Below the pieces are notes generated by a model, which was not told where the DNA came from, searched no databases, and saw only the letters and a program-made list of their open reading frames with translations. This document shows, piece by piece, positions 1 to 42,125 of a DNA stretch of 64,000 nt. This DNA is from Stegostoma tigrinum (taxonomy: Eukaryota). The translations under genes and the position numbers were made by a program. The stretch spans positions 39,805,979 through 39,869,978 of the forward strand of contig NC_081358.1 of assembly GCF_030684315.1 (NCBI RefSeq). The letters are read 5' to 3'. Each line of letters opens with the position of its first letter. Position 1 is the stretch's first letter.

Positions 1-3000
1 ATCCTCAGTAGGAGAACGTGGAGAACTGGTAATAGGCTGCACCTGATGAGAACAAGTACATTATGTTTGCATCCTTGGTCAGTGAGGTTGCTTCTATTCT
101 AACTAGGGATCTTGCCCTGAAACTCCTCCTTGTACAAATCCATCAGACAAAGAGCATCATATAATCTGCCAACTTTCTGAAGTGATATGTATTTCAACAT
201 CTCCAATTTGCATTTGTATAGCAGTTTTAAAGTGGTAGAATGTACCACTCTACTTCAAGTGTGTTATCAACAAAGGTTTGATATCAAGTCACACAAGGAG
301 AGATTAGGGCAAGTGGAAGTAGATTTTGAAAGAGTATTTTAAGAGGGTAGAAAGAGGCAGACAGATTCTAGAAATCTCAGTTCAAATGGCAGAAGGCACA
401 GCTGTCACTGAGGAAGAAGGGAAATCGGAAATGTCAAGTGGGCAGAAATGGAACAGCACAGAAATTGTAGAGGGTTATAAAGTTGCAGGGTTATAAAGTT
501 GCAGAAGTTTGAGATCTGATTGGATGAGGCCTTGGAGGGATTTGAATGCTTGCAATTTTAAATAGGAGGCATTGCTGGGTTGAGAATCAGTGGAGGTCAG
601 CAAGCACAGGGATGTGATGGCATATTGTGACTTGGTATGAGTTAGGATACAGGCAACAAAGCTTTAGCTATGCTGAAATTTATGCCAATGGATGGTTTTT
701 ATTTCAAACTTCTTTACAATTGCTAATAATTCTTTATACATCATGAGGAAAATGCAGATAGTTATTTGATAGAAGTTGGCTGTGATTATGTGATGTTCTT
801 TGCAATAATTCAATGACTGATGGATTTGTACAAGGAAAAGTGACTGATGTTTTTGAATTGATTAAACTTTTCATTTTCCCATCTCAAAAGACCTATATTG
901 TTATGGTACAGTTTCTCTCTGTGCATAGGGGATAAATTGATTCCCAATGTCAAAGAAAATAACACATTTTAATCTTTTTTTTCACCACTTTCACTGACTT
1001 TTTTCCCCCTCTTTTGTTGCTTATCATGTCAATATAATGTACAAGTGGAATAAATGAAATGGCGCCCCCAAATGAGGAAGCTTTGATGCAAGAATTACCT
1101 AGGCTATGTAGAATCACTTGGTTCTGTTCAGGGAAATCTAGGTAACACACGTGTTTGTTTCTGTGACATGCAATTTCTACTATCTTAACAGGCCACTTCC
1201 TCTGCTCTGAACAGTTGTCTATTTTTGAGTTAAACCAGACCTCTGGGAGGAAAAAAAAATCAAATGATTTCATCATGTTAAAAATGAAAAGCTGTAATTA
1301 CTTACAATTAAGCTTCAGTTCCATTCAACACCCCCCCCCCCCCCCGACACCATTGAAATTACATTTTTTTTCTAAAGCTCTGGGTCTTGTTCTAAATCAG
1401 TATAGTTTGAAAAGTAGGAAATAATTTTCTGTTCGGTTGAAAATTGATTTAATTTGTAATGCTGACCAGAGCTTGTGTGTTTTATTTTAAAAGGTAAAGG
1501 AGTTACTGCATGAAATAATGAATCCATTAAAGCCCGCTATTAGGATTTATTTATATAAATATGATTTTTCCTACATTTTTCTGGGCAGCAATGAATTAAA
1601 ACATGAAATACTTAAAACGTTAAGTAAATAGAAATAATAAATGTCAGGTTTGGAGAGGCTGATGTGTTTTAGTTGATAGTCATCTCAAAATTATTTCCAA
1701 GCCATATCATTGCAGGAAGCTGTGCAAGCTGCTCTCCTTAAGTGACCTCAAAGGGAAAAAGAAGAGGACACCGAAATCAACATTTGCAAGTAAGCGATAG
1801 CGATTATAATGTCAATGGTACCTTGTGGTCTGTGAACCTTCCAACTCCTGAACAATACCTTGGCATAGGGACAATGTGAACATGGTGCAGTTATTTGAGG
1901 CTCATCCTGGCAATTATCAAACTTGTGTTATAAGTACAGCTGCAAGAGATATTGTTTGGGGAGTCGCCGTATTGGTTTTCTGGATTCTACTCAAAGCAAG
2001 TGATCTCCCCCCACCTCTGGTACGATCCATTAAGAGTAGAGTCCCATATGTTACAGTTTGCTGGTGGCCTGATAATGTCACTGGCGCACTGCAGTCATGT
2101 TCCAGGCAGGAGTTGTCGCTGAAACTGTCACAGCTCCACAGCTTTTCTTGGCAACAATCTTTACATAATGATAACCTTGCAAAGCATTGCGCGAGACGTT
2201 TTAAAAAAAATACTGACCTAATGAGTGTTTTTATAATTATTGTTGGGGGAGGGGTAGAAAAAAAGTGTAATCTTGCAGTTAATGAAAGGTTTATGAACTG
2301 TCAATTTTATTGGAGAATTTTAAAGTACAATACAGTAGCACATAAGCTTACATGTTGGAAGATTTCTGACATTCTAAATGGAAAGGCTTTGTATATTCTA
2401 TAAGCAAATATCAAAGCTGACTTCATATATGCTATAATATTTAAAGTTGTGATTTATTTAAGTGGATACGATATAGTTACAATATTAAGGAACATTTATT
2501 TGTATTTTGGATTCACATCTTTCAAAAACTTTTTCAAATATATATTTTTCACTGCTTGCCCCCTTCTCCACTGCACCTTTTGATACTGGTTTGCCAATTG
2601 ATTTGTATCTACTGTTTTTGTGCAATTTAATCAGAGTACAGCTATAGTTTTTAGCATTGTTTTGTGCAAATGTCCTTTTATGTCAAGTGCTTGGAATTGC
2701 TTAAAGCAACATGTGCAGAAAATCATCTTGTATTTATTTGATGGGTGATTGCTCTTTTTTGTTCCCTCGTATTGCAGTAATTGCACAGAGCAGTACCAAA
2801 TAGTTCATGGTCTTGCACTGAAATGACTAGATTAAAAATCAGAATTGTGCAACAATGACATTATAGCAATAGTGCAGATTAACCTCAACCAATGCTTTTG
2901 TTATATTCAGAAAAGTTTTTTTTTTCTTAAATATAATGGGCTTTAACCCAAAGCTAAATCATTTACTACAAGGCAAAAATTAAGAGTGTGGTTGGATACT

Positions 3001-6836: not shown

Positions 6837-7027
6837 CGGGATAGTAGGAACTGCAGATGCTGGAGATCTGAGATAACAAACTGTGTAGAGGTGGATGAAC
6901 ACAGCAGTCCAAACAGCATCAGAGGAGCAGGAAGGCTGACGTTTTGGACCTAGACCCTTCTTCAGAGAGGGTCTTCGGATTGTTGCATGGCCTGCTGTGT
7001 TCATCCAGCTTCATACCTTGTTTTCTC
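6837..7027. mobile_element. Palindromic PLE-terminus mini-insertion (older subfamily, decayed HHR)
   Basis: A minus-strand tail plus HHR is joined to a plus-strand partial arm. TSD TAAGTTAGTGATGT at 6823-6836 and 7028-7041. Confidence 0.88.
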
Positions 7028-8524: not shown

Positions 8525-9809
8525 GTGGGATTGGAAAAGGTTATAAGGGATAGGATTTATAATCATCTAGAAAAGAATAAATTGATTAGGGATAGTCAGC
8601 ACGGTTTTGTCAAGGGAAGGTCATGCCTCACAAACCGCATTGAGTTCTTTGAGAAGGTGACCAAACAGGTAGATGAGAGTAAACCGGTTGATGTGGTGTA
8701 TATGGATTTCAGCAAGGCGTTCGATAAGGTTCCCCACAATAGGCTATTGTACAAAATGCAGAGGAATGGGATTGTGGGAGACATAGCAGTTTGGATCGGA
8801 AATTGGCTTGCTGAAAGAAGACAGAGGGTGGTAGTTGATGGGAAATGTTCATCCTGGAGACCAGTTACTAGTGGTGTACCGCAAGGGTCGGTGTTGGGTC
8901 CACTGCTGTTTGTCATTTTTATAAATGACGTGGAAGTTGCCACCCAGGTTGACAAGATAATAAAGTGTGAAGCTGGATGAACACAGCAGGCCAAGCAGCA
9001 TCTCAGGAGCACAAAAGCTGACATATCAGGCTTAGACCCTTTTTCATATCTCTGATGAAGGGTCTAGGCCCGAAACGTCAGCTTTTGTGCTCCTGAGATG
9101 CTGCTTGGCCTGCTGTGTTCATCCAGCTTCACACTTTATTATCTTGGATTCTCCAGCATCTGCAGTTCCCATTATGTCACCCAGGTTGACAGGGCTGTTA
9201 AGAAGGCACACAGTGTTTTAGCTTTTATTAATAGAGGGATCGAGTTCCGGAACCAAGAGGTTATGGGGAAGCTGTACAAAACTCTGGTGCGGCTGCACTT
9301 GGAGTATTGCGTACAGTTCTGGTCACTGCATTATAAGAAGGACGTGGATGCTTTGGAAAGGCTGCAGAGGAGATTTACTAGGATGTTGCCTAGTATGGAG
9401 GGAAGGTCTTATGAAGAAAGGCTGAGGGACTTGAGGCTGTTTTCATTAGAGAGAAGAAGGTTGAGAGGTGACTTAATTGAAACATATGAAATAATCAGAG
9501 GGTTGGAGAGGGAGAGCCTTTTTCCTAGGATGGTGACGGCGAGCACGAGGGGGCATAGCTTTAAATTGAGGGGTGAAAGATATAGGACAGATGTCCGAGG
9601 TAGTTTCTTTACTCAGAGAGTAGTAAGGGAATGGAACGCTTTGCCTGCAACGGTCGTAGATTTGCCAACTTTAGGTACATTTAAGTCGTCATTGGATAAG
9701 CATATGGATGTACGTGGAATAGTGTAGGTTAGATGGGCTTCAGATCGGTATGACAGGTCGGCACAACATCAAGGGCCGAAGGGCCTGTACTGTGCTGTTA
9801 TGTTCTATG
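8525..9809 (+). mobile_element. CR1/HER1-type LINE, 5'-truncated ORF2 with internal deletion
   Basis: [48 protein letters not shown], then a jump to the C-terminal region (FADD motif deleted). Ends ...GGCCTGTACTGTGCTGTTATGTTCTATG. Confidence 0.92.
8955..9177. mobile_element. Palindromic PLE-terminus mini-insertion with an intact HHR core (9052-9079, +)
   Basis: Two head-to-head copies of the PLE 3' terminus. TSD CACCCAGGTTGACA at 8941-8954 and 9178-9191. Interrupts a CR1 ORF2. Confidence 0.9.
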
Positions 9810-18235: not shown

Positions 18236-19978
18236 CCTCCACTTCCTTCAGGATTTTCAATTCCCTGGCCCCTCAAACCTCATCTTCACCATGGACATCC
18301 AGACACTGTACACATGTACCCCCCACGTAGATGGCCTAAAAGCCCTCTGCTTTTTCCTCTCCTGCAGGCCCAACCAGACCACCTCCACCGACATCTACTG
18401 AATGGAACTTGTCTTTACCCTCAACAACTTTTCCTTTAACTCCTCGCACTTCCTACAAACTAAAGGGCTGGCTGTGGGCACCCGTATGGGTCCGAGCTCT
18501 GCCTGCCTGTTCGTAGGATACGTGGAATAGTCCCTTTTCCACTGATACACTGGCATCATCCCCTTCCTCTTCTTCTGCTACATTGATTGTATCACCGCTG
18601 CCTTGTGTTACCGCAGGAAGCTTGAGCAGTTCATCAACTTTACTAACACCTTTCACCCCAACCTCAAATTCACCTGGACCATCTCTGATACCTTCCTCCA
18701 TTTCCTGGATGTCTCTGCTTCCATAACCAGTAACTGTCTCAGTACTGACATCTATTTCAAACCCACAGCTAACTTGATTACACCTCGTCTCACCCAACCT
18801 CCTACAAGAATGCAATCTCTTACTCCCAATTGCTCTGCCTCCACCACGTCTGCTCCCAGGACAGAGCCTTCCACTCCCACTCGTGTCCGATGTCCTCCTA
18901 ATTCAAGGATTGCAACTTCCCCCTCTCTTGATTGAAAATGCCCTCAACTGCATCTCTTGCATTTCCCACACTTCTTCCCTAAAACCCCCTCCCCCCAACA
19001 AAAATAAATACTGAGTCTCCCTGGCTCTCACATACCACCCCACCAACCTCCGCATCCAGCGCATCACCCTCCACCATTTCTGCCACCATACAATCCAAAC
19101 CTACCACTAAAGAGAGATTCCCCTTTCCCACCCCTATTTGCTTTTCATAGGGACCACTCTCACTCTGCAACTCACTCGTCCACTACTCACTCCCCACTAA
19201 CTCCGCCACACCAGGCACCTTTCCCTGCAACTGCAGGAGATGTTACACATGTCCCTACACCTCTGTTCTCACCTCCATCTGAGGCCCAAGATAAACTTTC
19301 CATATCTGATAGGGGTTCACCTGTACATCCTCCAACCTGGTTTGCTGTATCCCTTGCTCCCGATATGGTCTCAGCTGTATTGGTGAGACCAGCATAGACT
19401 CAGTGACAGATTTGTGGAACATCTGTGCTCCATACACTATAATCAATACCTTCTGGTTGCCAACTATTTTAACTCCTCCTCTCTCCTCCCACTCCCTGGA
19501 TGACATGCCCATCCTGGGCCTCCTCCAGTGCCACAATGATGCCACATGCAAACTGGAGGAACAACACCTCATATTGTGCCTCAGGAGCCTACAACCTGTT
19601 GGCCTAATGTAGAATTCACCAGTTTCAAAATCTCCCTAACCCCAGTGTCATCCCATTTCCAACCCTCCCTCTCATACCCACCTCCTTGACATGACACTAC
19701 CTGTCCATCTCCTTCCATATCTATCTGCCACAACCTTCCCATTGACTAATCCCCACTACCCCTACCTGCATCCACCTATCACCACCCACCTACCTTCCCC
19801 AGGACCACCCCATTTACCTCTATCTATTCTCAGCTCCCTTTCCCCTTCCCGGTCCTGATGAAGGGTCTAGGCCTAAAACATTTACTGTCCTAATCCTCTG
19901 ATGCTGTCTGACCTGCTGTGTTTCTCCAGCTTCGTGCTGTTTTGACTCTGACTCCAGCATCTGCAGTTCTTGCTATCT
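18236..19978 (+). pseudogene. Decayed 5'-truncated PLE of the same lineage (RT C-half, GIY-YIG, 3'UTR, degenerate HHR at ~19855)
   Basis: Fragments LHFLQDFQFPGPSNLIFTMDIQTLY, LEQFINFTNTFHPNLKFTW and LEEQHLI, with stops and frameshifts. Terminal CTCCAGCATCTGCAGTTC. Confidence 0.9.
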
Positions 19979-20945: not shown

Positions 20946-20972
20946 TCTGAACTAAATGCCAAGATCAGTTGT

Positions 20973-21875
20973 ATCAGAGATAATGGGAACTGCAGATGCT
21001 GGAGAATTCCAAGATAATAAAATGTGAGGCTGGATGAACACAGCAGGCCAAGCAGCATCTCAGGAGCACAAAAGCTGACGTTTCGGGCCTAGACCCTTCT
21101 TCAGAGAGGGGGATGGGGAGAGGGAGCTGGAATAAATAGGGAGAGAGGGGGAGGCGGACCGAAGATGGAGAGTAAAGAAGATAGGTGGAGAGAGTATAGG
21201 TGGGGTGGTAGGGAGGGGATAGGTCAGTCCAGGGAAGACGGACAGGTCAAGGAGGTGGGATGGGGTTAGTAGGTAGCTGGGGGTGCGGCTTGGTGTGGGA
21301 GGAAGGGATGGGTGAGAGGAAGAACCGGTTAGGGAGGCAGAGACAGGTTGGACTGGTTTTGGGATGCAGTGGGTGGGGGTGAAGAGTTGGGCTGGTTGTG
21401 TGGTGCAGTGGGGGGAGGGGACGAACTAGGCTGGTTTAGGGATGCAGTAGGGGAAGGGGAGATTTTGAAACTGGTGAAGTCCACATTGATACCATATGGC
21501 TGCAGGGTTCCCAGGCGGAATATGAGTTGCTGTTCCTGCAACCTTCGGGTGGCATCATTGTGGCAGTGTAGGAGGCCCATGATGGACATGTCATCTAGAG
21601 AATGGGAGGGGGAGTGGAAATGGTTTGCGACTGGGAGGTGCAGTTGTTTGTTGCGAACTGAGCGAAGGTGTTCTGCAAAGCGGTCTCCAAGCCTCCGCTT
21701 GGTTTCCCCAATGTAGAGGAAGCCGCACCGGGTACAATGGATGCAGTATACCACATTGGCAGATGTGCAGGTGAACCTCTGCTTAATGTGGAATGTCATC
21801 TTGGGGCCTGCGATAGGGGTGAGGGAGGAGGTGTGGGGACAAGTGTAGCATTTCCTGCGGTTGCAGGGGAAGGTG
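20973..21875 (-). repeat. Inverted copy of the PLE 3' end (GIY-YIG region, 3'UTR, HHR and terminal tail)
   Basis: The minus-strand ORF 21329-21958 reproduces TFPCNRRKCYTC...SNLSLPP. The arm also carries ~40 nt of terminal tail (20973-21014) that the sense copy lacks. Confidence 0.95.
21077..21104 (-). ncRNA. Minimal hammerhead motif in the inverted arm
   Basis: Reverse complement reads CTGAAGAAGGGTCTAGGCCCGAAACGTC; the only change is at the variable N7 position. Confidence 0.78.
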
Positions 21876-21928
21876 TCAAGATAATAAAATGTGAGGCTGG
21901 ATGAACACAGCAGGCCAAGCAGCATCTC

Positions 21929-24900
21929 CGGACCAACCTCAGGGAATCTCTCTCCCATTGCAACTCTGTTGTAATCTCTTCGGCCTTGAAACTACTCGAC
22001 CATGTCCTGAAGCAAACCAGGTACCACAGCCACATCACCTTCCTCAGCACCTGCCTACGGAACCAGATCATCCCCAAGGGACTACAGTCCACATTTCAGC
22101 CTTCCCAATTTGGCCCCAACCGTGACCACCTCTACACCCAGAATATTCAGACCCTTGAGAAGCGTTTCTCCCTGCGAGTCCTGAAACAGACGCTTGCAGC
22201 CATGCGCCGGCACCTCCAGGCACTGCAATCCAGCCTGCCCCAGCTCAGAGCCTCCCTCTCCCAGACCTGCAAAGGACCTCTGCTGTTTTTTATCTTCCGC
22301 AGGATCCACAGACTGAACACCCAGTTCCACTCAGCTTTACTGGACACCAAAAATCGTAAGTACAACCAACTCACGGGCCCCTGCCACCCACAAGAGGATT
22401 CCTGCGCCTCCCAAATCCCGACTCTGTCCCTGCCCCTCCCCCACCATGCATCCGCCGCCATTGACCATGAGGACACGGCCGGAGACCCCACCGATGACGT
22501 CACATCCGCCTCCGCCGGCCACAGAACTTCCGGAACCGCTGCAGCAGTCACCACCTCCACATCCAGGTACAACACCCCACACACTACCCTCACCGCAGCT
22601 GCTGCCGCCCACCCCGATCCTCCAACCGCCGACGGAACCCCGCCCACGGCTGACGGAACCCCGCCCACGGCCGATGACCTCATCGCTCCGCCCGCAACCT
22701 CCACAGCCAGCAACCCCAGAGGAGACAGCCACACTCAGCCCTGCCGCATCTTCACCATCCCCCCAGACCTCCCACTGACTGAGGACGAATGGTCAGTCCT
22801 TAGCAAGGGGCTCACCTTTGTTCCCCTACAACCACACATCAACGAATACCAGTCACGGTTGGACATAGAGCAGTTTTTCCGCCGTCTTCGCCTCCATGCC
22901 TACTTCTTCAACCGGGAACCTAACCCTCCTTCCACTGACCCCTTCACCCGCTTCCAACACAAGTCCTCCTCCTGGACACCACCCCCAGGCCTCCTACCCT
23001 CCCTCAACCTCTTCATCTCCAACTGCCGTCGAGACATTAACCGCCTCAACCTCTCCACCCCTCTCACCCACTCCAACCTCTCCCCCGCAGAACGGGCAGC
23101 CCTCCGCTCCCTCTGCTCCAACCCCAACCTCACCATCAAACCCGCAGACAAGGGTGGCGCAGTGGTAGTATGGCACACTGACCTCTACATCGCCGAGGCC
23201 AGACGCCAACTCTCCGACACCACCTCCTACCGCCTCCTCGATCATGACCCCACACCCGAGCACCAAACCATCATCTCCAACACCATTCACGACCTCATCA
23301 CCTCAGGGGACCTCCCACCCACAGCCTCCAACCTCATTGTTCCCCAACCCCGCACGGCCCGTTTCTATCTCCTTCCCAAAATCCACAAACCTGCCTGCCC
23401 TGGTCGACACATCGTCTCAGCCTGCTCCTGCCCCACCGAACTCATCTCCACCTATCTGGACTCCATTTTCTCCCCTTTGGTCCAGGAACTCCCCACCTAT
23501 GTCCGTGACACCACCCACGCACTCCACCTCCTCCAGGACTTCCAATTCCCTGGCCCCCAACACCTCATATTCACCATGGACGTCCAGTCCCTGTACACCT
23601 GCATTCCGCATGGAGATGGCCTCAAGGCCCTCCGCTTCTTCCTGCCCCGCAGGCCCGACCAGTCCCCCTCCACCGACACTCTCATCTGCCTAGCTGAATT
23701 CGTCCTCACACTCAACAACTTGTCTTTTGACTCCTCCCACTTCCTACAGACTAAGGGGGTGGCCATGGGCACCCGCATGGGCCCCAGCTATGCCTGCCTC
23801 TTTGTAGGTTACGTGGAACAGTCCCTCTTCCGCACCTACACAGGCCCCAAACCCCACCTCTTCCTCCGGTACATTGATGACTGTATCGGCGCCGCCTCTT
23901 GCTCCCCAGAGGAGCTCGAACAGTTCATCCACTTCACCAACACCTTCCACCCCAACCTTCAGTTCACCTGGGCCATCTCCAGCACATCCCTCACCTTCCT
24001 GGACCTCTCAGTCTCCATCTCAGGCAACCAGCATGTAACTGATGTCCATTTCAAGCCCACCGACTCCCACAGCTACCTAGAATACACCTCCTCCCACCCA
24101 CCCTCCTGCAAAAATTCCATCCCCTATTCCCAATTCCTCCGCCTCCGCCGCATCTGCTCCCACGATAAGACATTCCACTCCCGCACATCCCAGATGTCCA
24201 AGTTCTTTAAGGACCGCAACTTTCCCCCCACAGTGATTGAGAACGCCCTTGACCGCGTCACCCCTATTTCCCGCAACACATCCCTCACACCCCGCCCCCG
24301 CCACAACCGCCCTAAGAGGATCCCCCTCGTTCTCACACACCACCCTACCAACCTCCGGATACAACGCATTATCCTCCGACACTTCCGCCATTTACAATCC
24401 GACCCCACCACCCAAGACATTTTTCCATCCCCTCCCCTGTCTGCTTTCCAGAGAGACCACTCTCTCCGTGACTCCCTTGTTCGCTCCACACTGCCCTCCA
24501 ACCCCACCACACCCGGCACCTTCCCCTGCAACCGCAGGAAATGCTACACTTGTCCCCTCACTTCCTCCCTCACCCCTATCGCAGGCCCCAAGATGACATT
24601 TCACATTAAGCAGAGGTTCACCTGCACATCTGCCAATGTGGTATACTGCATCCACTGTACCCGGTGCGGCTCCCTCTACATTGGGGAAACCAAGCGGAGG
24701 CTTGGAGACCGCTTTGCAGAACACCTCCGCTCAGTTCTCAACAAACAACTGCACCTCCCAGTCGCAAACCATTTCCACTCCCCCTCCCATTCTCGAGATG
24801 ACATGTCCATCATGGGCCTCCTGCACTGCCACAATGATGCCACCCGAAGGTTGCAGGAACAGCAACTCATATTCCGCCTGGGAACCCTGCAGCCATATGG

Positions 24901-25075
24901 TATCAATGTGGACTTCACCAGTTTCAAAATCTCCCCTTCCCCTACTGCATCCCTAAACCAGCCTAGTTCGTCCCCTCCCCCCACTGCACCACACAACCAG
25001 CCCAGCTTCCCGCGCCCCCCCACCCACCCACCCACTGCATCCCAAAACCAGTCCAACCTGTCTCTGCCTCCCTAA
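21929..25075 (+). CDS. PLE polyprotein: N-terminal domain, T/P/A-rich linker, reverse transcriptase, Cys-rich linker, GIY-YIG endonuclease (5'-truncated, no native ATG)
   Basis: The frame is open from the junction at 21929 (the ORF track starts at a TTG, 21986) to TAA at 25075. RT motifs: FTMDVQSLYT, QTKGVAMGTRMGPSYA, LRYIDD (YIDD at 23870-23881), FLDL. Linker CNRRKCYTC. Endonuclease NVVYCIHCTRCGSLYIGETKRRLGDRFAEH...EQQLIFRLGTLQPYGIN. Confidence 0.93.
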   Translation, partial: RTNLRESLSHCNSVVISSALKLLDHVLKQTRYHSHITFLSTCLRNQIIPKGLQSTFQPSQFGPNRDHLYTQNIQTLEKRFSLRVLKQTLAAMRRHLQALQSSLPQLRASLSQTCKGPLLFFIFRRIHRLNTQFHSALLDTKNRKYNQLTGPCHPQEDSCASQIPTLSLPLPHHASAAIDHEDTAGDPTDDVTSASAGHRTSGTAAAVTTSTSRYNTPHTTLTAAAAAHPDPPTADGTPPTADGTPPTADDLIAPPATSTASNPRGDSHTQPCRIFTIPPDLPLTEDEWSVLSKGLTFVPLQPHINEYQSRLDIEQFFRRLRLHAYFFNREPNPPSTDPFTRFQHKSSSWTPPPGLLPSLNLFISNCRRDINRLNLSTPLTHSNLSPAERAALRSLCSNPNLTIKPADKGGAVVVWHTDLYIAEARRQLSDTTSYRLLDHDPTPEHQTIISNTIHDLITSGDLPPTASNLIVPQPRTARFYLLPKIHKPACPGRHIVSACSCPTELISTYLDSIFSPLVQELPTYVRDTTHALHLLQDFQFPGPQHLIFTMDVQSLYTCIPHGDGLKALRFFLPRRPDQSPSTDTLICLAEFVLTLNNLSFDSSHFLQTKGVAMGTRMGPSYACLFVGYVEQSLFRTYTGPKPHLFLRYIDDCIGAASCSPEELEQFIHFTNTFHPNLQFTWAISSTSLTFLDLSVSISGNQHVTDVHFKPTDSHSYLEYTSSHPPSCKNSIPYSQFLRLRRICSHDKTFHSRTSQMSKFFKDRNFPPTVIENALDRVTPISRNTSLTPRPRHNRPKRIPLVLTHHPTNLRIQRIILRHFRHLQSDPTTQDIFPSPPLSAFQRDHSLRDSLVRSTLPSNPTTPGTFPCNRRKCYTCPLTSSLTPIAGPKMTFHIKQRFTCTSANVVYCIHCTRCGSLYIGETKRRLGDRFAEHLRSVLNKQLHLPVANHFHSPSHSRDDMSIMGLLHCHNDATRRLQEQQLIFRLGTLQPYGINVDFTSFKISPSPTASLNQPSSSPPPTAPHNQPSFPRPPTHPPTASQNQSNLSLPP

Positions 25076-25299
25076 CCGGTTCTTCCTCTCACCCATCCCT
25101 TCCTCCCACACCAAGCCGCACCCCCAGGTACCTACTAACCTCATCCCACCTCCTTGACCTGTCCGTCTTCCCTGGACTGACCTATCCCCTCCCTACCACC
25201 CCACCTATACTCTCTCCACCTATCTTCTTTACTCTCCATCTTCGGTCCGCCTCCCCCTCTCTCCCTATTTATTCCAGCTCCCTCTCCCCATCCCCCTCT

Positions 25300-25327
25300 C
25301 TGATGAAGGGTCTAGGCCCGAAACGTC
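25300..25327 (+). ncRNA. Minimal type I hammerhead ribozyme motif (tandem copy 1)
   Basis: CTGATGA-A-GGGT(CTAG)GCCC-GAAAC-GTC: conserved core boxes, a 4-bp stem II and palindromic ACGT at helix III. Confidence 0.8.
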
Positions 25328-25363
25328 CCTATTTATTCCAGCTCCCTCTCCCCATCCCCCTCT

Positions 25364-25391
25364 CTGATGAAGGGTCTAGGCCCGAAACGTC
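25364..25391 (+). ncRNA. Minimal type I hammerhead ribozyme motif (tandem copy 2)
   Basis: Identical 28-nt core, 64 nt downstream of copy 1. Confidence 0.82.
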
Positions 25392-25789
25392 AGCTTTTGT
25401 GCTCCTGAGATGCTGCTTGGCCTGCTGTGTTCATCCAGCCTCACATTTTATTAGCCAAGATCAGTTGTCACTGTTTTAATACGGACATTTTCCAAACAAA
25501 CATTTAATGAGTCTTTAACAAACCTATGTTCCTGACAGTGTAGCGAATTCAGTAACCAAGTTCAGATTTGTTCTTGATAGAAATATGACTTCTGTTATTT
25601 GCAACTATATTGACAATAAGCACTTCTTGTTTGTCTAAATTTATTCCAAAGAAAATTGCTTGCATTTTAATTGAGGAATGTGCAATAATTTTCAGTAGAT
25701 GGATTTATGCTTACTGACATCAAGTTGTACATAAAATTCTTGTTTGCTGCAATCTGGTCCATGGAAATCATGTATGAGCAATAAATCTT

Positions 25790-26550
25790 TCACATGATTT
25801 GCTTATTTTAACTGCCTCCATTCGTCTTGTGCTGAAATCCTCACCTATGTCTTTGTCACATCTGCAGCTGACAATTCTAATGGTCCCTTGGCTGGATTCT
25901 TATCTCCCACCCACATAAACATTGGCTTGTTGAAAATCCTGTTCCCCACCACCCTCTCTGCTCACCTATATATTGACACTAACTGCCAATCAACCGTCAT
26001 CTCTCTGCTTGCTAGCTTAACACTAGTTCTCGATCTAGCAATGCCCTGGTTTTAAAGCTCTAAATTGTAGTTTTCAAACCTCTCCATGGTCTCACTCTCT
26101 TCCTATCTCAATAACCTGCCTTAGTTTGACAAATTTTGGAAGTCTTTCTGGTCCTCTAATTCTGATGTCCTGTGCTCACTGAATATTGATCTATTAGTGG
26201 GGCTATAACTTCAGCTACTTTAGCTCTAGCTTTGAAAGTACCTCTGTAAACCTATCGACCTCTTCACCACTCATCTGGGCCCGAAATGTCAGCTTTTGTG
26301 CTCCTGAGATGCTGCTTGGCCTGCTGTGTTCATCCAGCCTCACATTTTATTATCTTGGAATTCTCCAGCATCTGCAGTTCCCATTATCTCTGACCTCTTC
26401 ACCACTCTCACTTTAGGATTTTTTTTAAAAACAACTTCTCTGACCAGACTTTTTGGTTTCTTTGGTAGGTTAGTTTCAAATAATGTTAGATAATATTCAT
26501 GTGAAGTGCTTTGGAATGTATCCATGCATTAAAGGTGCTATATAAATGCA
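25790..26550 (+). mobile_element. Decayed L2-type LINE 3' end
   Basis: CTCACCTATGTCTTTGTCACATCTGCAGCTGACAATTCTAATGG resembles LIHAFVTSRLDYSN; tail AAAGGTGCTATATAAATGCAAATTGTTG. Confidence 0.6.
26273..26391 (+). mobile_element. Solo PLE 3' terminus insertion, truncated within HHR stem II
   Basis: Near-identical to the terminus of the 20973 element. 16-bp TSD GACCTCTTCACCACTC at 26257-26272 and 26392-26407. Confidence 0.9.
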
Positions 26551-26944: not shown

Positions 26945-28600
26945 CATTCATAGAGTCATATAGTATGGAAACAGGCCCCTTTGCCCAGCTCGACCATGCT
27001 GACCAGGTCACAAAAACTGAACTAGCCCTGTTTGCCTGTATTTGGCTCACATCCTTCTAAACCTTTCCTATACATGTACCTGCCAAATGTGTTTTAAATA
27101 TTGTAACTGTACTACTTCTGGCAGCTCATTCCATACAAGCACCACCTTCTGTGTGGAAAAAGTTGCTCTTCAGGTTCTTTTTTAAATCTTTCCCCTCTCA
27201 CCTTAAACCTATACCCTCCAGTTCTGAACTCCACTACTCTGGCAAAAAGACCTTGGCCATTTACCTTATCTATGCCCCTCACGAATTTATAAACCTTAAT
27301 ACGGTCATCCCTCAGCCTCCTTTAGTCCCAACCTACTCAGCCTCTCCTTTTAAATCGAACCTTCCAGGCTCTGTAAAGTCCTTGTAAATCTTTTTTTACA
27401 CCCTTTCCGGTTTAATAACATCTTTCCTATAGAAGGATGATTAGAATTGTATGCAGTACTTCAAATGTGGCCTTACCAATGTCTGGTGGAGTTGTAACAT
27501 GACATCCCAACTCTTGTATTCAGAGCTCTGACTGATAAAGGCAAGCATGCCAAACACCTTCCTCACCTCCCTGTCTACGGGTGGCACAGTGGCTCAGTGG
27601 TTAGCACTGCTGCTTCACAGCGGCAGGGACCCGGGTTCAATTCCAACCTCTGGCAATTGTCTGTGCGGAGTTTGCATATTGTACCCATGTCTGCATGGGT
27701 TTCCTCCAAGTGTTCCGGTTTGAGCTCTCAGTCCAGAGATGTGCAAGTTAGGTGGATTGGTCAGGCTAAATTGCCCATAGTGCTGACGGATGTGTAGATT
27801 AGGTGGGTTATGGGGGGATGGTAATGGGTGGGATACTCTGAGGTTCAGTGTGGACTCTTTGGGCTGAAGGGCCTGATTCCACACTGGAGTCATTCTGTGA
27901 TTCTACCTGTGATGCCACTTTCAAGGAACTATGTGCCTGTCTCTCTGTTTGACAGCTCTACCCAGAGCCCTGTCATTAACTGCATAAGTCCTGCCCTGGT
28001 TTGTATTACCAAAAAGGCAAGAAATCATGTTCATCTGAATTAAGCTCCATCTGTCATTCCTTGGCCGAGTTGACCCAGATCCTGTTGTACTCTTAGATAA
28101 TCTTCTTCATTGTTCACCATACCAATAATTTTGTTGTCATCCATAAACTTACTAACCATGCCTCCTTTTTTCTCATCCAAATCATTTATATAAGTGATGA
28201 ACAATTGTGAACTCAGCACTAATCCTTGTGGCACACTGATCACAAGCCTCCAGTCTGAACAACGACCTCCTACCACTATCCTCTGTTTCTACCATCAAGC
28301 CAGTTTTGTATCTAATTGACTAGCTCTCCCTGGATCCCATGTGATCTAACCTTACTAACCAGCCCACCATGTGGAACCTTGTTGAACGCCTTGCTGAAGT
28401 CCATGTAGACAAGTTTTGCCGCACTGCTTTCATCTATCATCTTGGTCACCTCTTCGAAGAAAAACTCAATCAAATTTGTGCGACATAATTTCCCATGTAC
28501 TAAGCTATGTTGACTGTCCCTGATCAGTCCTTGCCTTTCCAAATGCATGTGGATCCTGTCTCTCAGAATCCCCTTCAACCAATTACCCACCACTGACACT
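26945..28600 (-). mobile_element. Decayed CR1 LINE
   Basis: Minus-strand fragments [21 protein letters not shown] and SKFMDDNKI; CR1-type tail at ~26945. Confidence 0.88.
27579..27901 (+). mobile_element. HE1-like tRNA-derived SINE, full length
   Basis: A box TGGCTCAGTGG (27590-27600), B box GGTTCAATTCC (27634-27644) and a CR1-like 3' tail. Flanked by TCTAC, inside a CR1. Confidence 0.9.
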
Positions 28601-28844
28601 GACAAAGGCCCATTGGTCTGTAGTTCTCGGACACAATTTGACTTTGTGCCACATGAGATATTAAGACAAGTGACCATAGCTTTTTGAAAGGTAGATTTCT
28701 AGAAATGTTTGAAAGGAGGAGAGAAAACTATGAAAGCAGAGTGGTTTCGTGTGGAAATTCTGGAACTTAAAGTCTAGGCAGTTGAAATACAGTTATTCAT
28801 GCCGGTGGAATCAAAATCAGGATTTATAAATAATTCAGTCATAG

Positions 28845-35089: not shown

Positions 35090-37565
35090 TTCAACTGGGG
35101 ATCATGTTATTTTGGATCTGGTGAATTGTAATGTGCCATATTTAATAAGTGATCTCAGAATAAAAGATGCCCTATAACATTATTTAATGTTCAATTTGAG
35201 AATGAGAAACTTGAGTCAGAAACAACTGCCAATTTAAATAAGGGTAATTATGTAAGAATGAGGGGATTGTTGGCTGGAGTGGATTTGGAAGGGATTTGGC
35301 AGAAAAGCCTGTTGAGGAACAATGGTAGGTGGGTGTGTTCTTTTAAAAAAAACTGTTTATAACACATGGAAAGATTTTAGAAAGGGAATATATTTAATAT
35401 GGTTAACCAGGGGAATTAAGGACGGCATTAAATTGAAAGATAAAGCATAAAATGGGAGACATTTGTTGTAAATCATAGGAATAGGAAAGTTTTAAAAGCC
35501 AATAAAAATGACCAAAAAATAAACCAAGAGGACAAACTGCCAAGTATCACTAAAACAAACAATAAGAACTTATTGAAATGTATAAGGAAGAGAGACAACA
35601 GTGAACTTGGGCCCCTTAAAGAATGTGGTTGGGGAAATAATGATGGGGAATCGGGAAATGGTAAAGGACTTGAACAAATACTTTGCAGTAGTCTTCACTG
35701 TAGAGGATACTAAAAGCATTCAAAAACTCTAATAATAAGGGGCTTAAGGGGAGGAGGAAGTAAACACACAACAATCACTGGAGAAAAAGTACTAGGAAAA
35801 CTAATGCAGCTAAACGCTGATAAGTTCCTGGACCTGATGGGTTACATCTATTGGATTTTAAAGACAGTAGCTGCAGCAATGGTGCATGCACTGGTAGTAA
35901 TCTTCCAATAATTCTTAGAGTCTGGAAGATCCCAGTAGATTGCAAAGTTGCCAATGTAACAGCCTTATTCAAAAGGGGAGGGAAATGCATAAAGCAAAAC
36001 AGGTTACTGTAGCCCAAGTGACATTCCATTTGTCATTGGGAAAATTTTCACATGTATTATAAAAGGATGTAATCACATGACACCAGGTTATTGTCCAACA
36101 GGCTCATTTGAAATCACAAGCTTTTGAGGCATTGCCCTTCATCATTCTATTCTTTGCTATTCTTTGAAAACTTATGATTTCAAATAAACCTGTTGGACGA
36201 TAACCTGGTCTTGTCTGACTTCTGACTTTACCCACCTCAGTTCAACACTGGCACCTCCACAAAAAGGATGAAATAGTAGAGCCTTTAAACATACAATGTC
36301 ATCAAGAAGAGTCAGCATGGCTTCATGAAGTCAAAACCATGCCTGACAAGTTTATTGAAGATCTTTGGAGAGGTATGTTGGGGGTGGTATAGAAACTAGG
36401 AGTAGGAGTAGCCAGTTTGGCCCTTCAAGTCCACTCTGCCATTTAATACGATCATGTCTGATTCTGTGTCTCAATGCCATTTTCCCACTTTCTCTCTACT
36501 ACTTGGTGCCTTTAATATCTGAAAATTGATCAATCTCTTTCTTGTTTATACTCAGTGAGCCAGCTTCCACAGCTTTCTATGGGTGAGAATTCCACAGGTT
36601 TACCGCCCATTGTTTGAAGAAATGTTTCCTCATCTCAGTCCTAAATGGTTCACCCCCTGTCCTCAGACTGTGACCTTTGGTAGTAGACTCACCAAGCAGG
36701 GGAACTTTTTCTCTGCATCTAGTTTGTCCATCCCTATTAGAATTTTATAAGTTTCAATCAGATTCCCCCTCATCCCTGCTAAACTCTAGTGAATACAGGG
36801 TCACTTGAAACTATCTGTCCTTATCCAACAGGCCTGCCTTCCCTGCATCAGTCAAGTGTACTTCCGCTGCACTCCCTCCGTGGCAAGTATGTCCCCTTTT
36901 AGATAGGGAGACCGAAATAGCACATGATTCTCCAGGTGCAGTCTACATAAGTGCTGTCATACATCCCGTTTCTGAACTCTCTTCATCTTACAATGAAGAC
37001 CAACATAACAGCTGCCTAAGTGCTTTTAGCACCTGTCTGTTTACTTTAATTGATGTGTACAAAGGCACCCAGATACACTGAGAAATGGGATGTAAAAATG
37101 TATCACATTTAACTAATTCTTGCCTTTCTGTTTTTCGCATCAAAATGTATAACTTCATATATATCCATGTTTGTTAGCAAAGGTGGAGGATTGGCTACTA
37201 ATAGCGGACAGAGTTGGGATAAAGGGGGCATTTTCAGATTTAACCTGTAACCAGAGGAGTGCCATTGGGTCAAATAGATCTACAAATATTTATAAAATGT
37301 ATTAATGATTTGGATGATGGAAGTGAATGTACAATTGCCAAGTTTGTGGATGACACAAAATTAGGTGGGAAGGTAACTAGTGAGGGTGACACAAAGCAGT
37401 GTATAGAGCGAAATGGACGGGTTAAGTGAATGGGTAAAAATTTAGCCAGTAAAATATAAGATGGGAAGATGTTAGGTTGTGCACTTTGGCAAGAAGAATA
37501 GGAGAACTGAATGCTGTTTAAGTGGAGAAAGACTGCAGAATCTGCACTGCAGAGAGATTTGGGTA
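35090..37565 (+). mobile_element. Old CR1 LINE, with an antisense CR1 (~36385-37170) and a mini-palindrome nested in it
   Basis: CCTGGACCTGATGGGTTACATC (PGPDG), CAGCATGGCTTCATGAAG (QHGF) and AAGTTTGTGGATGACACAAAA (KFxDDTK). Confidence 0.75.
36074..36261. mobile_element. Palindromic mini-insertion of a second family with a decayed HHR-like core
   Basis: Inverted arms at ~36080-36125 and ~36166-36211. TSD AAAAGGATG(T/A)AAT at 36061-36073 and 36262-36274. The minus strand reads TGATGAAGGGCAATGCCTCAAAAGCTT. Confidence 0.75.
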
Positions 37566-41035: not shown

Positions 41036-42125
41036 TATGTGGCGGTGGAGTAGCAGGCCTGTGTACAGACTCTTACTTGAGTCTCATCCGCTCCTGTATG
41101 CTTTCTTTCTTTATACCTCTGCTTTTTTTTGTTTTTCTCTTTCATTTTTTTCTTTGGTTTTTCTTTGTTTTTGGAGCCTTCTGTGGTGGGTTGGTGGTGA
41201 GATCGGCGTGGCAGCTAAAGGGGGTCAGGCACAGAATGTTGGCTTCTTCCAGTGTTTGGAGGTGGCAGCAGCAGCAGCAAGCAGTGACAAACACCCAGTG
41301 TTAGGATCTGGCAGTGGTGGCAAAACTCCTCCAGCGACTGGAGGTGTAGTGGCCACGGACTTTTCAGGATGGCACTACTGGCAAGGTGACATCTTGGAGC
41401 GGGATTCCACAGCTATCCGTTCTGAGAGTGGACTCCAAGTGTTTAGAATTTATTTAGAGAAATACTATTTCAGAGTTGCAAGTAGTGTATGGAAGGATAA
41501 AATGGCAAAGAGATTTAACAGATTAATAGAATGAGCAAAACATGATAAATGATTTCAATGTAAGTAAAAAAGGTTTTCCAACTTGGAACTAAAACTTGTA
41601 GTGAGAAACTAAATAGTGAGAATCAGAAACAGGATGGCAATACCAGCAAGGTGACATCTTGGAGTGGGATGGCAGTGGCCTGTTCTGGCAATGGAACCAG
41701 GCGCTCCTGATGTTGGTGAGGTGGTGGCTGCAGTGGTGGCAGCATGGAATGCCTGGACTTGGGTGGGGGTGCCTGCTGTCATCAAGGTGGCGGTAGAGCC
41801 GGGACTCCTGGTTGTGGGATAAGTGTGGGTTCTGCTTGGGACCCAGAATTGGCATCGATGAGATATGCCCAGCAGTGAAGAGGTGGTGATTTCTATGTTG
41901 ATGGGTCCGGTGACGGCAGTGGAGGAGAACTGGTAGTGCAGATGTCATTGAGATGGCTTAGGGCTTTCTTTCGGTTAGACTTTTATCTTCTTTATTCTTT
42001 AAACTATTCTAAATGGTGCTGGATTCTAGTGACTATTGAAGCTTTTCACTGTATTTTACTGTATTAGTCACTGTAAAATGGAAGTGACAACAAATAAATC
42101 ATTCATAAATAAATCATTCATTCAT
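41036..42125 (+). mobile_element. Unclassified non-coding, probably non-autonomous retroelement
   Basis: Starts with TGGCGGTGGAGTAG, followed by a T-rich tract and a G-rich body. Ends GCTTTTCACTGT...GTGACAACAAATAAATCATTC-type repeats. Similar layout at 55020-55700 on the minus strand. Confidence 0.5.

Follow-up and report, generated by a model that had tools for sequence, protein, structure and literature searches.

A 64-nt tandem duplication meeting at the predicted hammerhead cleavage site of a shark Penelope-like element

A compound Penelope-like insertion

A 4.5-kb Penelope-like element (PLE) insertion from Stegostoma tigrinum (20973-25453) contains, within its 3' pseudo-LTR and near its right end, a 64-nt sequence that is present twice in tandem, each unit bearing a hammerhead core. 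An exact 15-bp target duplication, identified as the longest common substring of both flanks, brackets the insertion. The parts of the locus, numbered by their position in the window (the whole 64,000-nt stretch of DNA that was analysed), are listed below.

20958..20972, no strand: left copy of the 15-bp target-site duplication (longest common substring of flanks)
20973..21875, minus strand: inverted copy of the 3' part of the element, truncated at its 5' end and holding the last of the endonuclease region, the pseudo-LTR and the long tail
21077..21104, minus strand: the inverted arm's only minimal hammerhead core, C3 = 21104 and C17 = 21077 (motif search)
21877..21935, minus strand: short inverted tail fragment with its 3' end 67 nt past C17 (exact to about 21928, by BLAST to 21935)
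21905..25075, plus strand: open frame of 1056 codons, a slightly 5'-truncated PLE ORF (motifs, profile search)
25076..25453, plus strand: main copy's 3' pseudo-LTR, which extends to the short tail site (C17+62)
25262..25327, plus strand: unit 1 of the duplication, including the 2-nt overlap and ending at C17 (exact match, Tandem Repeats Finder)
25300..25327, plus strand: hammerhead core, copy 1, whose own cleavage site has no helix I (motif search)
25326..25391, plus strand: unit 2 of the duplication, with its 5' end 36-38 nt upstream of C3 (exact match, Tandem Repeats Finder)
25364..25391, plus strand: hammerhead core, copy 2, with the native 2-bp helix I and a predicted cut at 25391/25392 (motif search)
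25454..25468, no strand: right copy of the 15-bp target-site duplication (longest common substring of flanks)

The 1056-codon frame, whose first approximately eight codons are inverted tail sequence, combines a reverse transcriptase (RT) with a GIY-YIG-type endonuclease at the C-terminus in one ORF. It carries a DKG motif, RT motifs including YIDD, a CX4CXXC linker (residue 875) and the endonuclease motifs YCI..YIG, R..EH and V..HF. The Pfam RVT_1 profile matched this frame with an E-value of 3.6e-5 but scored only 24 bits, under the cut-off of 29.6; the closest of 794 matching proteins (76% and 73% identical) are labelled Chiloscyllium punctatum. Because the linker fits the CX2-5CxxC definition, a feature between RT and endonuclease that is reported as common to Neptune and Nematis (PMC8557442), one of these two clades is suggested, and the element is probably of the Neptune type. 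Tandem Repeats Finder additionally located an in-frame 21-nt doubling (22631-22671) in a Pro/Thr-rich stretch of the ORF.

This ORF, together with a pseudo-LTR accompanied by an inverted 5'-truncated copy, a tail and a target duplication, identifies the locus as a single compound insertion of a PLE that carries an endonuclease (EN+). Its tail sites lie at C17+61..67 and C17+98..104, and the inverted copy (20973-21875) has its 3' end about 103 nt past C17. The inverted and direct arms differ by 15 mismatches in 861 aligned columns (1.7% of sites), and the core of the inverted arm has an A at variable position 7. An ATG located 19 nt past C17 (in the 25410-25453 region, and in the inverted arm to 20973) opens a 28-codon frame with no stop up to the long tail site; in full-length copies, the ORF may begin with this frame.

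Elsewhere in the window, a Pfam search for host genes among the 119 frames of at least 72 codons outside the element, from which short exons would escape, returned only two RT fragments of other retroelements, at 8525-8977 (plus strand) and 28315-28698 (minus strand), both matching RVT_1. At 18237-19970 (plus strand) lies the 3' half of a related PLE, which is older (about 72% identity) and differs in its helix I flanks.

The maximal exact match within the duplication is 66 nt long (25262-25327 = 25326-25391, period 64, within the 64-kb window), and Tandem Repeats Finder scored 25262-25391 as 2.0 copies at 100%. The 64-nt units thus overlap by 2 nt (TC), the last base of which is hammerhead C17 of copy 1, such that the seam can be placed after G16.2, U16.1 or C17 of that copy. 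An initial annotation had set the units at 25264-25327 and 25328-25391, which is one of several valid registers; its observations that the first unit ends at the predicted GUC cut site with TC microhomology, and that the inverted arm is single-copy (one core, 21104-21077 on the minus strand, by motif search), were reproduced here. Across the 64 kb, exact tandem doublings whose unit measures 10-299 nt number only four, the other three having units of 10-16 nt, and therefore the 64-nt doubling is not a product of chance. That the two units are identical gives no date for the event: dating on this basis was attempted and set aside as uninformative, as the probability of zero differences is 0.33 at the divergence of the arms.

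The hammerhead motif and its predicted folding

Both units contain the arrangement CUGAUGA-A-helix II-GAA-ACGU-C17, in which C3 corresponds to 25300 (copy 1) or 25364 (copy 2) and C17 to 25327 or 25391, respectively. As read from the sequence, they have the catalytic core, the extra base 9/10.1, the G10.1-C11.1 pair and the palindromic 15.2-16.2 positions of the minimal hammerheads of PLEs. The earlier identification of this type, with a palindromic ACGU replacing helix III, therefore holds, and dimers of the kind have been reported to cleave weakly (PMC4209133). According to the same report, a single motif was uncleaved, dimers and trimers cleaved weakly, and in the double hammerhead the two ACGU strands pair so that each core acts on the other copy's site (PMC4209133). 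An Rfam scan of the 64 kb up to E = 1 gave one match, which was not a hammerhead.

Helix I is short at this locus. Two contiguous pairs form at the native site (copy 2) and none at the site of copy 1, in agreement with the initial annotation. In minimal hammerheads helix I usually comprises 4-5 bp, although 2 bp has been reported in Drosophila virilis (PMC4209133). A search with the hammerhead pattern yielded no match in viral contigs and 15 loci in metagenome contigs, which resemble the window element at the core only; helix I has 0-7 pairs in these loci, with at least three in 10 of the 15. None of the 15 has a second core within 300 nt. In two of these unrelated loci (L003, 692-894; L010, 738-837), head-to-head inverted repeats are centred 8-14 nt upstream of C3.

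The two sites of the putative dimer are not equivalent. Site A would combine the core of copy 1 with the GUC of copy 2 and the native two-pair helix I, whereas site B has no helix I pairs because the seam replaced the downstream strand of copy 1. Judged from these pairings, at most one cut, at 25391, would be possible in the tandem. Since the site of copy 1 is without helix I, no 64-nt monomer or circle would be released. This bears on the proposal that the units were copied from a 64-nt RNA circle, or that they represent a newborn retrozyme. A circular intermediate has been proposed for PLEs (PMC4209133), and tandem retrozymes with units from 51 bp have been linked to PLE pseudo-LTRs (bioRxiv 10.64898/2026.07.22.740005). 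A circle would nevertheless require that C17 be linked to a 5' end lying 36 nt upstream of the core, where there is no cleavage site; with its seam at C17, the unit loses the 3' half of helix I (zero pairs) and cannot cut itself out; and normal element sequence continues on both sides. The small-circle origin raised in the initial annotation is thus scarcely credible.

Folding predictions with ViennaRNA, which are two-dimensional and include neither magnesium nor tertiary contacts nor protein, place the core of a single unit in pairing with the cleavage-site strand. In the tandem, the two 12-nt helix II strands are predicted to pair mutually while the core again pairs with the cleavage-site strand; a fold constrained to form site A lies 14.5 kcal/mol higher if helix I is left out and 20.2 kcal/mol higher if it is included. 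Compared with shuffled sequences, the tandem region folds only slightly better (z = -1.5). These models predict that the tandem adopts an inactive helix II/helix II duplex, and the pair appears to have no likely function. The suggestion that the two palindromes could form a working dimeric ribozyme in cis accordingly finds little footing in the predictions, as one site only could form, in a fold lying 14.5-20 kcal/mol above the mispaired one.

The helix II strand (25308-25319) is itself self-complementary, with a self-duplex of -22.6 kcal/mol compared with -3.7 kcal/mol for the hairpin. Self-duplexes below -10 kcal/mol are also obtained in 14 of the 15 other loci, and any hairpin strand does so to a degree.

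Breakpoints and the origin of the doubling

Breakpoints in the window were taken as the BLAST ends of all copies of the family aligned to the single-core inverted arm. Seven of the 14 3' ends fall at C17+61..67 and five at C17+98..104; of the remaining two, one at about C17+90 belongs to an old diverged copy and one, at C17, is the seam itself. Among the 11 5' ends (three long copies that continue upstream being omitted), seven lie at C3-6..C3+11 and none at C17+1. The clustered ends belong to short copies (6971, 9046, 9049, 14076, 26274, 34037 and 61310). The absence of ends at C17+1 is uninformative alone (P = 0.79 under a flat model), and the C3 cluster has a binomial probability of 1e-4 for a zone that was picked post hoc. 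Because these seven 5' ends lie upstream of the cut site, the corresponding templates were read through uncleaved, and their accumulation at C3 suggests that inserted templates were mostly uncleaved. The cluster may correspond to the 5' end of the RNA, not to the cut site.

Stops at C3 caused by a hairpin in the nascent cDNA were considered and rejected; all the 45-nt cDNA ends examined fold weakly (-1.1 to -4.5 kcal/mol) and give no peak at C3.

Small insertions of the family at 8955-9177, 6837-7027 and 26273-26391 have 14-16-bp target duplications. Two small family insertions are head-to-head pairs with a tail at each end, an arrangement expected if both target nicks were primed; the PLE pair near 9 kb sits within the RT fragment at 8525-8977 (plus strand).

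A broader view of the family was obtained from the contigs of four of 23 listed sequencing runs, aligned to 20951-21350, which covers the single-copy arm and not the seam. Three bisulfite raw-read runs of Stegostoma tigrinum were left out, as C-to-T conversion produces false ends at the hammerhead. The family is very abundant, with 190,131 contigs of run X1 on these 400 bases. The joints listed (15 of 103 and 12 of 291) mostly connect tail site to tail site or stop at 21099-21108, around C3; restarts following stops in the C3 zone lie at tail sites or at C17+3, +4 and +10. No breakpoint at C17 (21076-21079) is present among these joints or the loose ends listed (24 of 1047), a tally that leaves some uncounted. 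Among the joints and ends listed, C17 is thus not one of the best-supported breakpoints; rarer restarts at C17 may be hidden beyond them. With one of 14 3' ends and none of 11 5' ends at C17 in the window as well, the predicted clustering of family breakpoints at GTC| was not borne out by the breakpoints listed. In run X9, 154 of 788 partly aligned contigs end at C3-1 (21105) with heterogeneous, unrelated flanks. The summed depth of X1, which is no measure of copy number, is almost level across C17 (39 to 34 million), whereas from helix II to the region upstream of C3 it declines (34, 21 and then 9 million).

Three of the 12 joints listed out of 291 connect 21106 to 21067, 21108 to 21074 and 21108 to 21073, their kind not being stated. 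If they are go-back joints, the genome holds several 35-40-nt tandem hammerhead units, and those restarting at C17+3 or C17+4 would keep helix I in both units, making them better dimer candidates than the 64-nt pair.

The same contigs bear on whether the doubling is an artefact of assembling highly repeated sequence. The four best runs contain 95-97% of 101 sampled words of 25240-26250, and the words that span the seam, about 28 of 981 positions, could be the missing ones. Joints from 21140-21142 to 21077-21079, as the doubling would produce, number zero among those listed, but a seam present at a single locus would fall below the support of the listed joints. The rest of the insertion is coherent, with its open 1056-codon frame and exact target duplication, and we consider an artefact very improbable.

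On a narrow balance of probability, the doubling is an ordinary template slip on an uncleaved template, and its match to C17 is incidental. We infer that the insertion was built from several reverse-transcription runs. The rightmost run would have been primed at the usual tail site, passed through the hammerhead in its uncleaved form and come to a halt 36-38 nt upstream of the core. Re-priming 64 nt back, on the same or another element RNA and via the 2-nt TC microhomology, would then have been followed by about 3.4 kb of synthesis. The restart would lie at the base of the hammerhead hairpin, a zone of other restarts, its coincidence with C17 being fortuitous.

Several observations are consistent with such a slip. 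The insertion has the anatomy of a PLE with a target duplication and three internal seams, and 12 of the 14 3' ends in the window lie in the two tail zones. Microhomology of at least 2 nt to the stall point is found at 13 of 116 downstream positions, C17 among them; when microhomology is not required, the seam zone comprises 3 of the 116. In the anole PLE, hammerhead cleavage is reported to be dispensable for insertion, unprocessed RNA to be the dominant template, and no RNA-seq read to end at the cut site (PMC11167929). Against the slip, all other 3' ends in the window except that of the one old diverged copy fall within the tail zones, and the seam brackets C17. For a restart located in this region, the probability of bracketing C17 is about 3-8%, for one event noticed post hoc.

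This coincidence is what an alternative proposed in the initial annotation would explain. The stalled RT may have switched to an element RNA that had cleaved itself, accepting the 3' end of the 5' product (whose final base is C17), with the last two cDNA bases pairing with the terminal UC. The geometry fits, as C17 is the last base of the overlap; in end-to-end jumps, the enzymes of group II introns and R2, which are not PLEs, are reported to pair 1-2 bases at the 3' terminus of the acceptor (PMC8363836, PMC8857657). The seam is, moreover, the only clear non-tail 3' end of the 14 in the window, and the anole PLE hammerhead cleaves in vitro with its protein present (PMC11167929). Yet this is a single event, picked post hoc in a very abundant family (190,131 X1 contigs on 400 bases), and neither joints nor loose ends at 21076-21079 are among those listed. 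The restarts listed at C17+3, +4 and +10 require no cleavage, helix I has only two pairs, the core of a single unit is predicted to fold onto the cleavage-site strand, and none of the 15 unrelated minimal-hammerhead loci has a second core within 300 nt. In open-licence papers and preprints, we found no PLE enzyme that accepts a 2',3'-cyclic-phosphate end, nor any description of a PLE seam at the hammerhead cut site or of a jump onto a cyclic-phosphate terminus. Of the original proposal, the seam geometry stands, whereas the expected concentration at C17 is missing among the listed breakpoints. We regard a jump onto a cleaved end as unlikely, and are equally doubtful that the seam preserves, as a genomic fossil, an in vivo cleavage by the hammerhead.

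A different possibility is that one unit was present at insertion and that 64 bp were doubled later at the DNA level, by replication slippage or by repair using the 2-nt microhomology. The window holds further short and exact doublings, overlapping by 0-2 nt, at 471-504, 36147-36166 and 42092-42121, the ORF contains its 21-nt doubling (22631-22671), and no difference separates the two units, against 1.7% of sites between the arms. These other doublings are far shorter, however; unit 2 with its tail (128 nt) resembles, in both size and shape, the short truncated copies abundant in the window, and the insertion already bears other re-priming seams. A DNA-level origin seems unlikely as well, and a template slip at the time of insertion remains our preferred account of the doubling.

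Significance and comparison with known systems

The ribozyme type is already published, and the pair is one irregular seam in a very common shark retroelement. Its interest lies in the in vivo role of PLE hammerheads, which are reported to cleave weakly in vitro, to be dispensable in one reconstituted system and to be missing from some successful clades (PMC4209133, PMC11167929, PMC8557442). Recurrent seams at C17 would matter for that role, and the breakpoint pattern offers a cheap genome-wide handle on it. The pattern currently points away from a role for cleavage, because the 5' ends concentrate along the core's upstream edge rather than where the cut is predicted. Should the jump onto cleaved RNA be true, vertebrate minimal hammerheads would cut in the germline and supply acceptor ends for partial tandems, and a genome-wide survey of such seams could report on how active the ribozymes are in vivo.

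Non-LTR retrozymes also consist of tandem units with a type I core derived from the PLE pseudo-LTR (PMC7229834; bioRxiv 10.64898/2026.07.22.740005). They are defined by at least two consecutive units, each a complete hammerhead; in the shark pair, the site of copy 1 is without helix I. The pair thus differs in consisting of two units inside a coding element, whose seam destroys helix I of unit 1 and would allow no monomer or circle.

With the minimal type I hammerheads of PLEs (Cervera and de la Pena 2014, PMC4209133), the shark motifs share the core CUGANGA / GAAA / GUC, the extra base 9/10.1, the G10.1-C11.1 pair, the palindromic 15.2-16.2 positions without a helix III loop, and the location in the pseudo-LTR. 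The differences from that description are a helix I of 2 bp instead of the usual 4-5, two cores 64 nt apart, a seam at C17 and a helix II strand that is a 12-nt self-complement.

The Poseidon element PAc of Anolis carolinensis (Frangieh et al. 2024, PMC11167929) resembles the shark element in having two internal initiation sites that define the tail, in the extension of both target strands and in read-through of the uncleaved hammerhead. PAc belongs to the Penelope/Poseidon clade, and its hammerhead was cut only with protein; the available text of that report describes neither a tandem hammerhead nor a restart at the cut site.

In its anatomy, the locus follows the standard plan of EN+ PLEs, as described for canonical insertions of Neptune and Nematis elements (PMC8557442, Craig et al. 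2021; PMC3846280, Arkhipova et al. 2013). Shared features are an RT followed by a GIY-YIG endonuclease, the CX2-5CxxC linker, an inverted 5'-truncated copy, partial tandems, an optional tail of 30-40 bp and a target duplication. The shark element is set apart from these descriptions by one re-priming point that lies at the hammerhead and not at a tail site.
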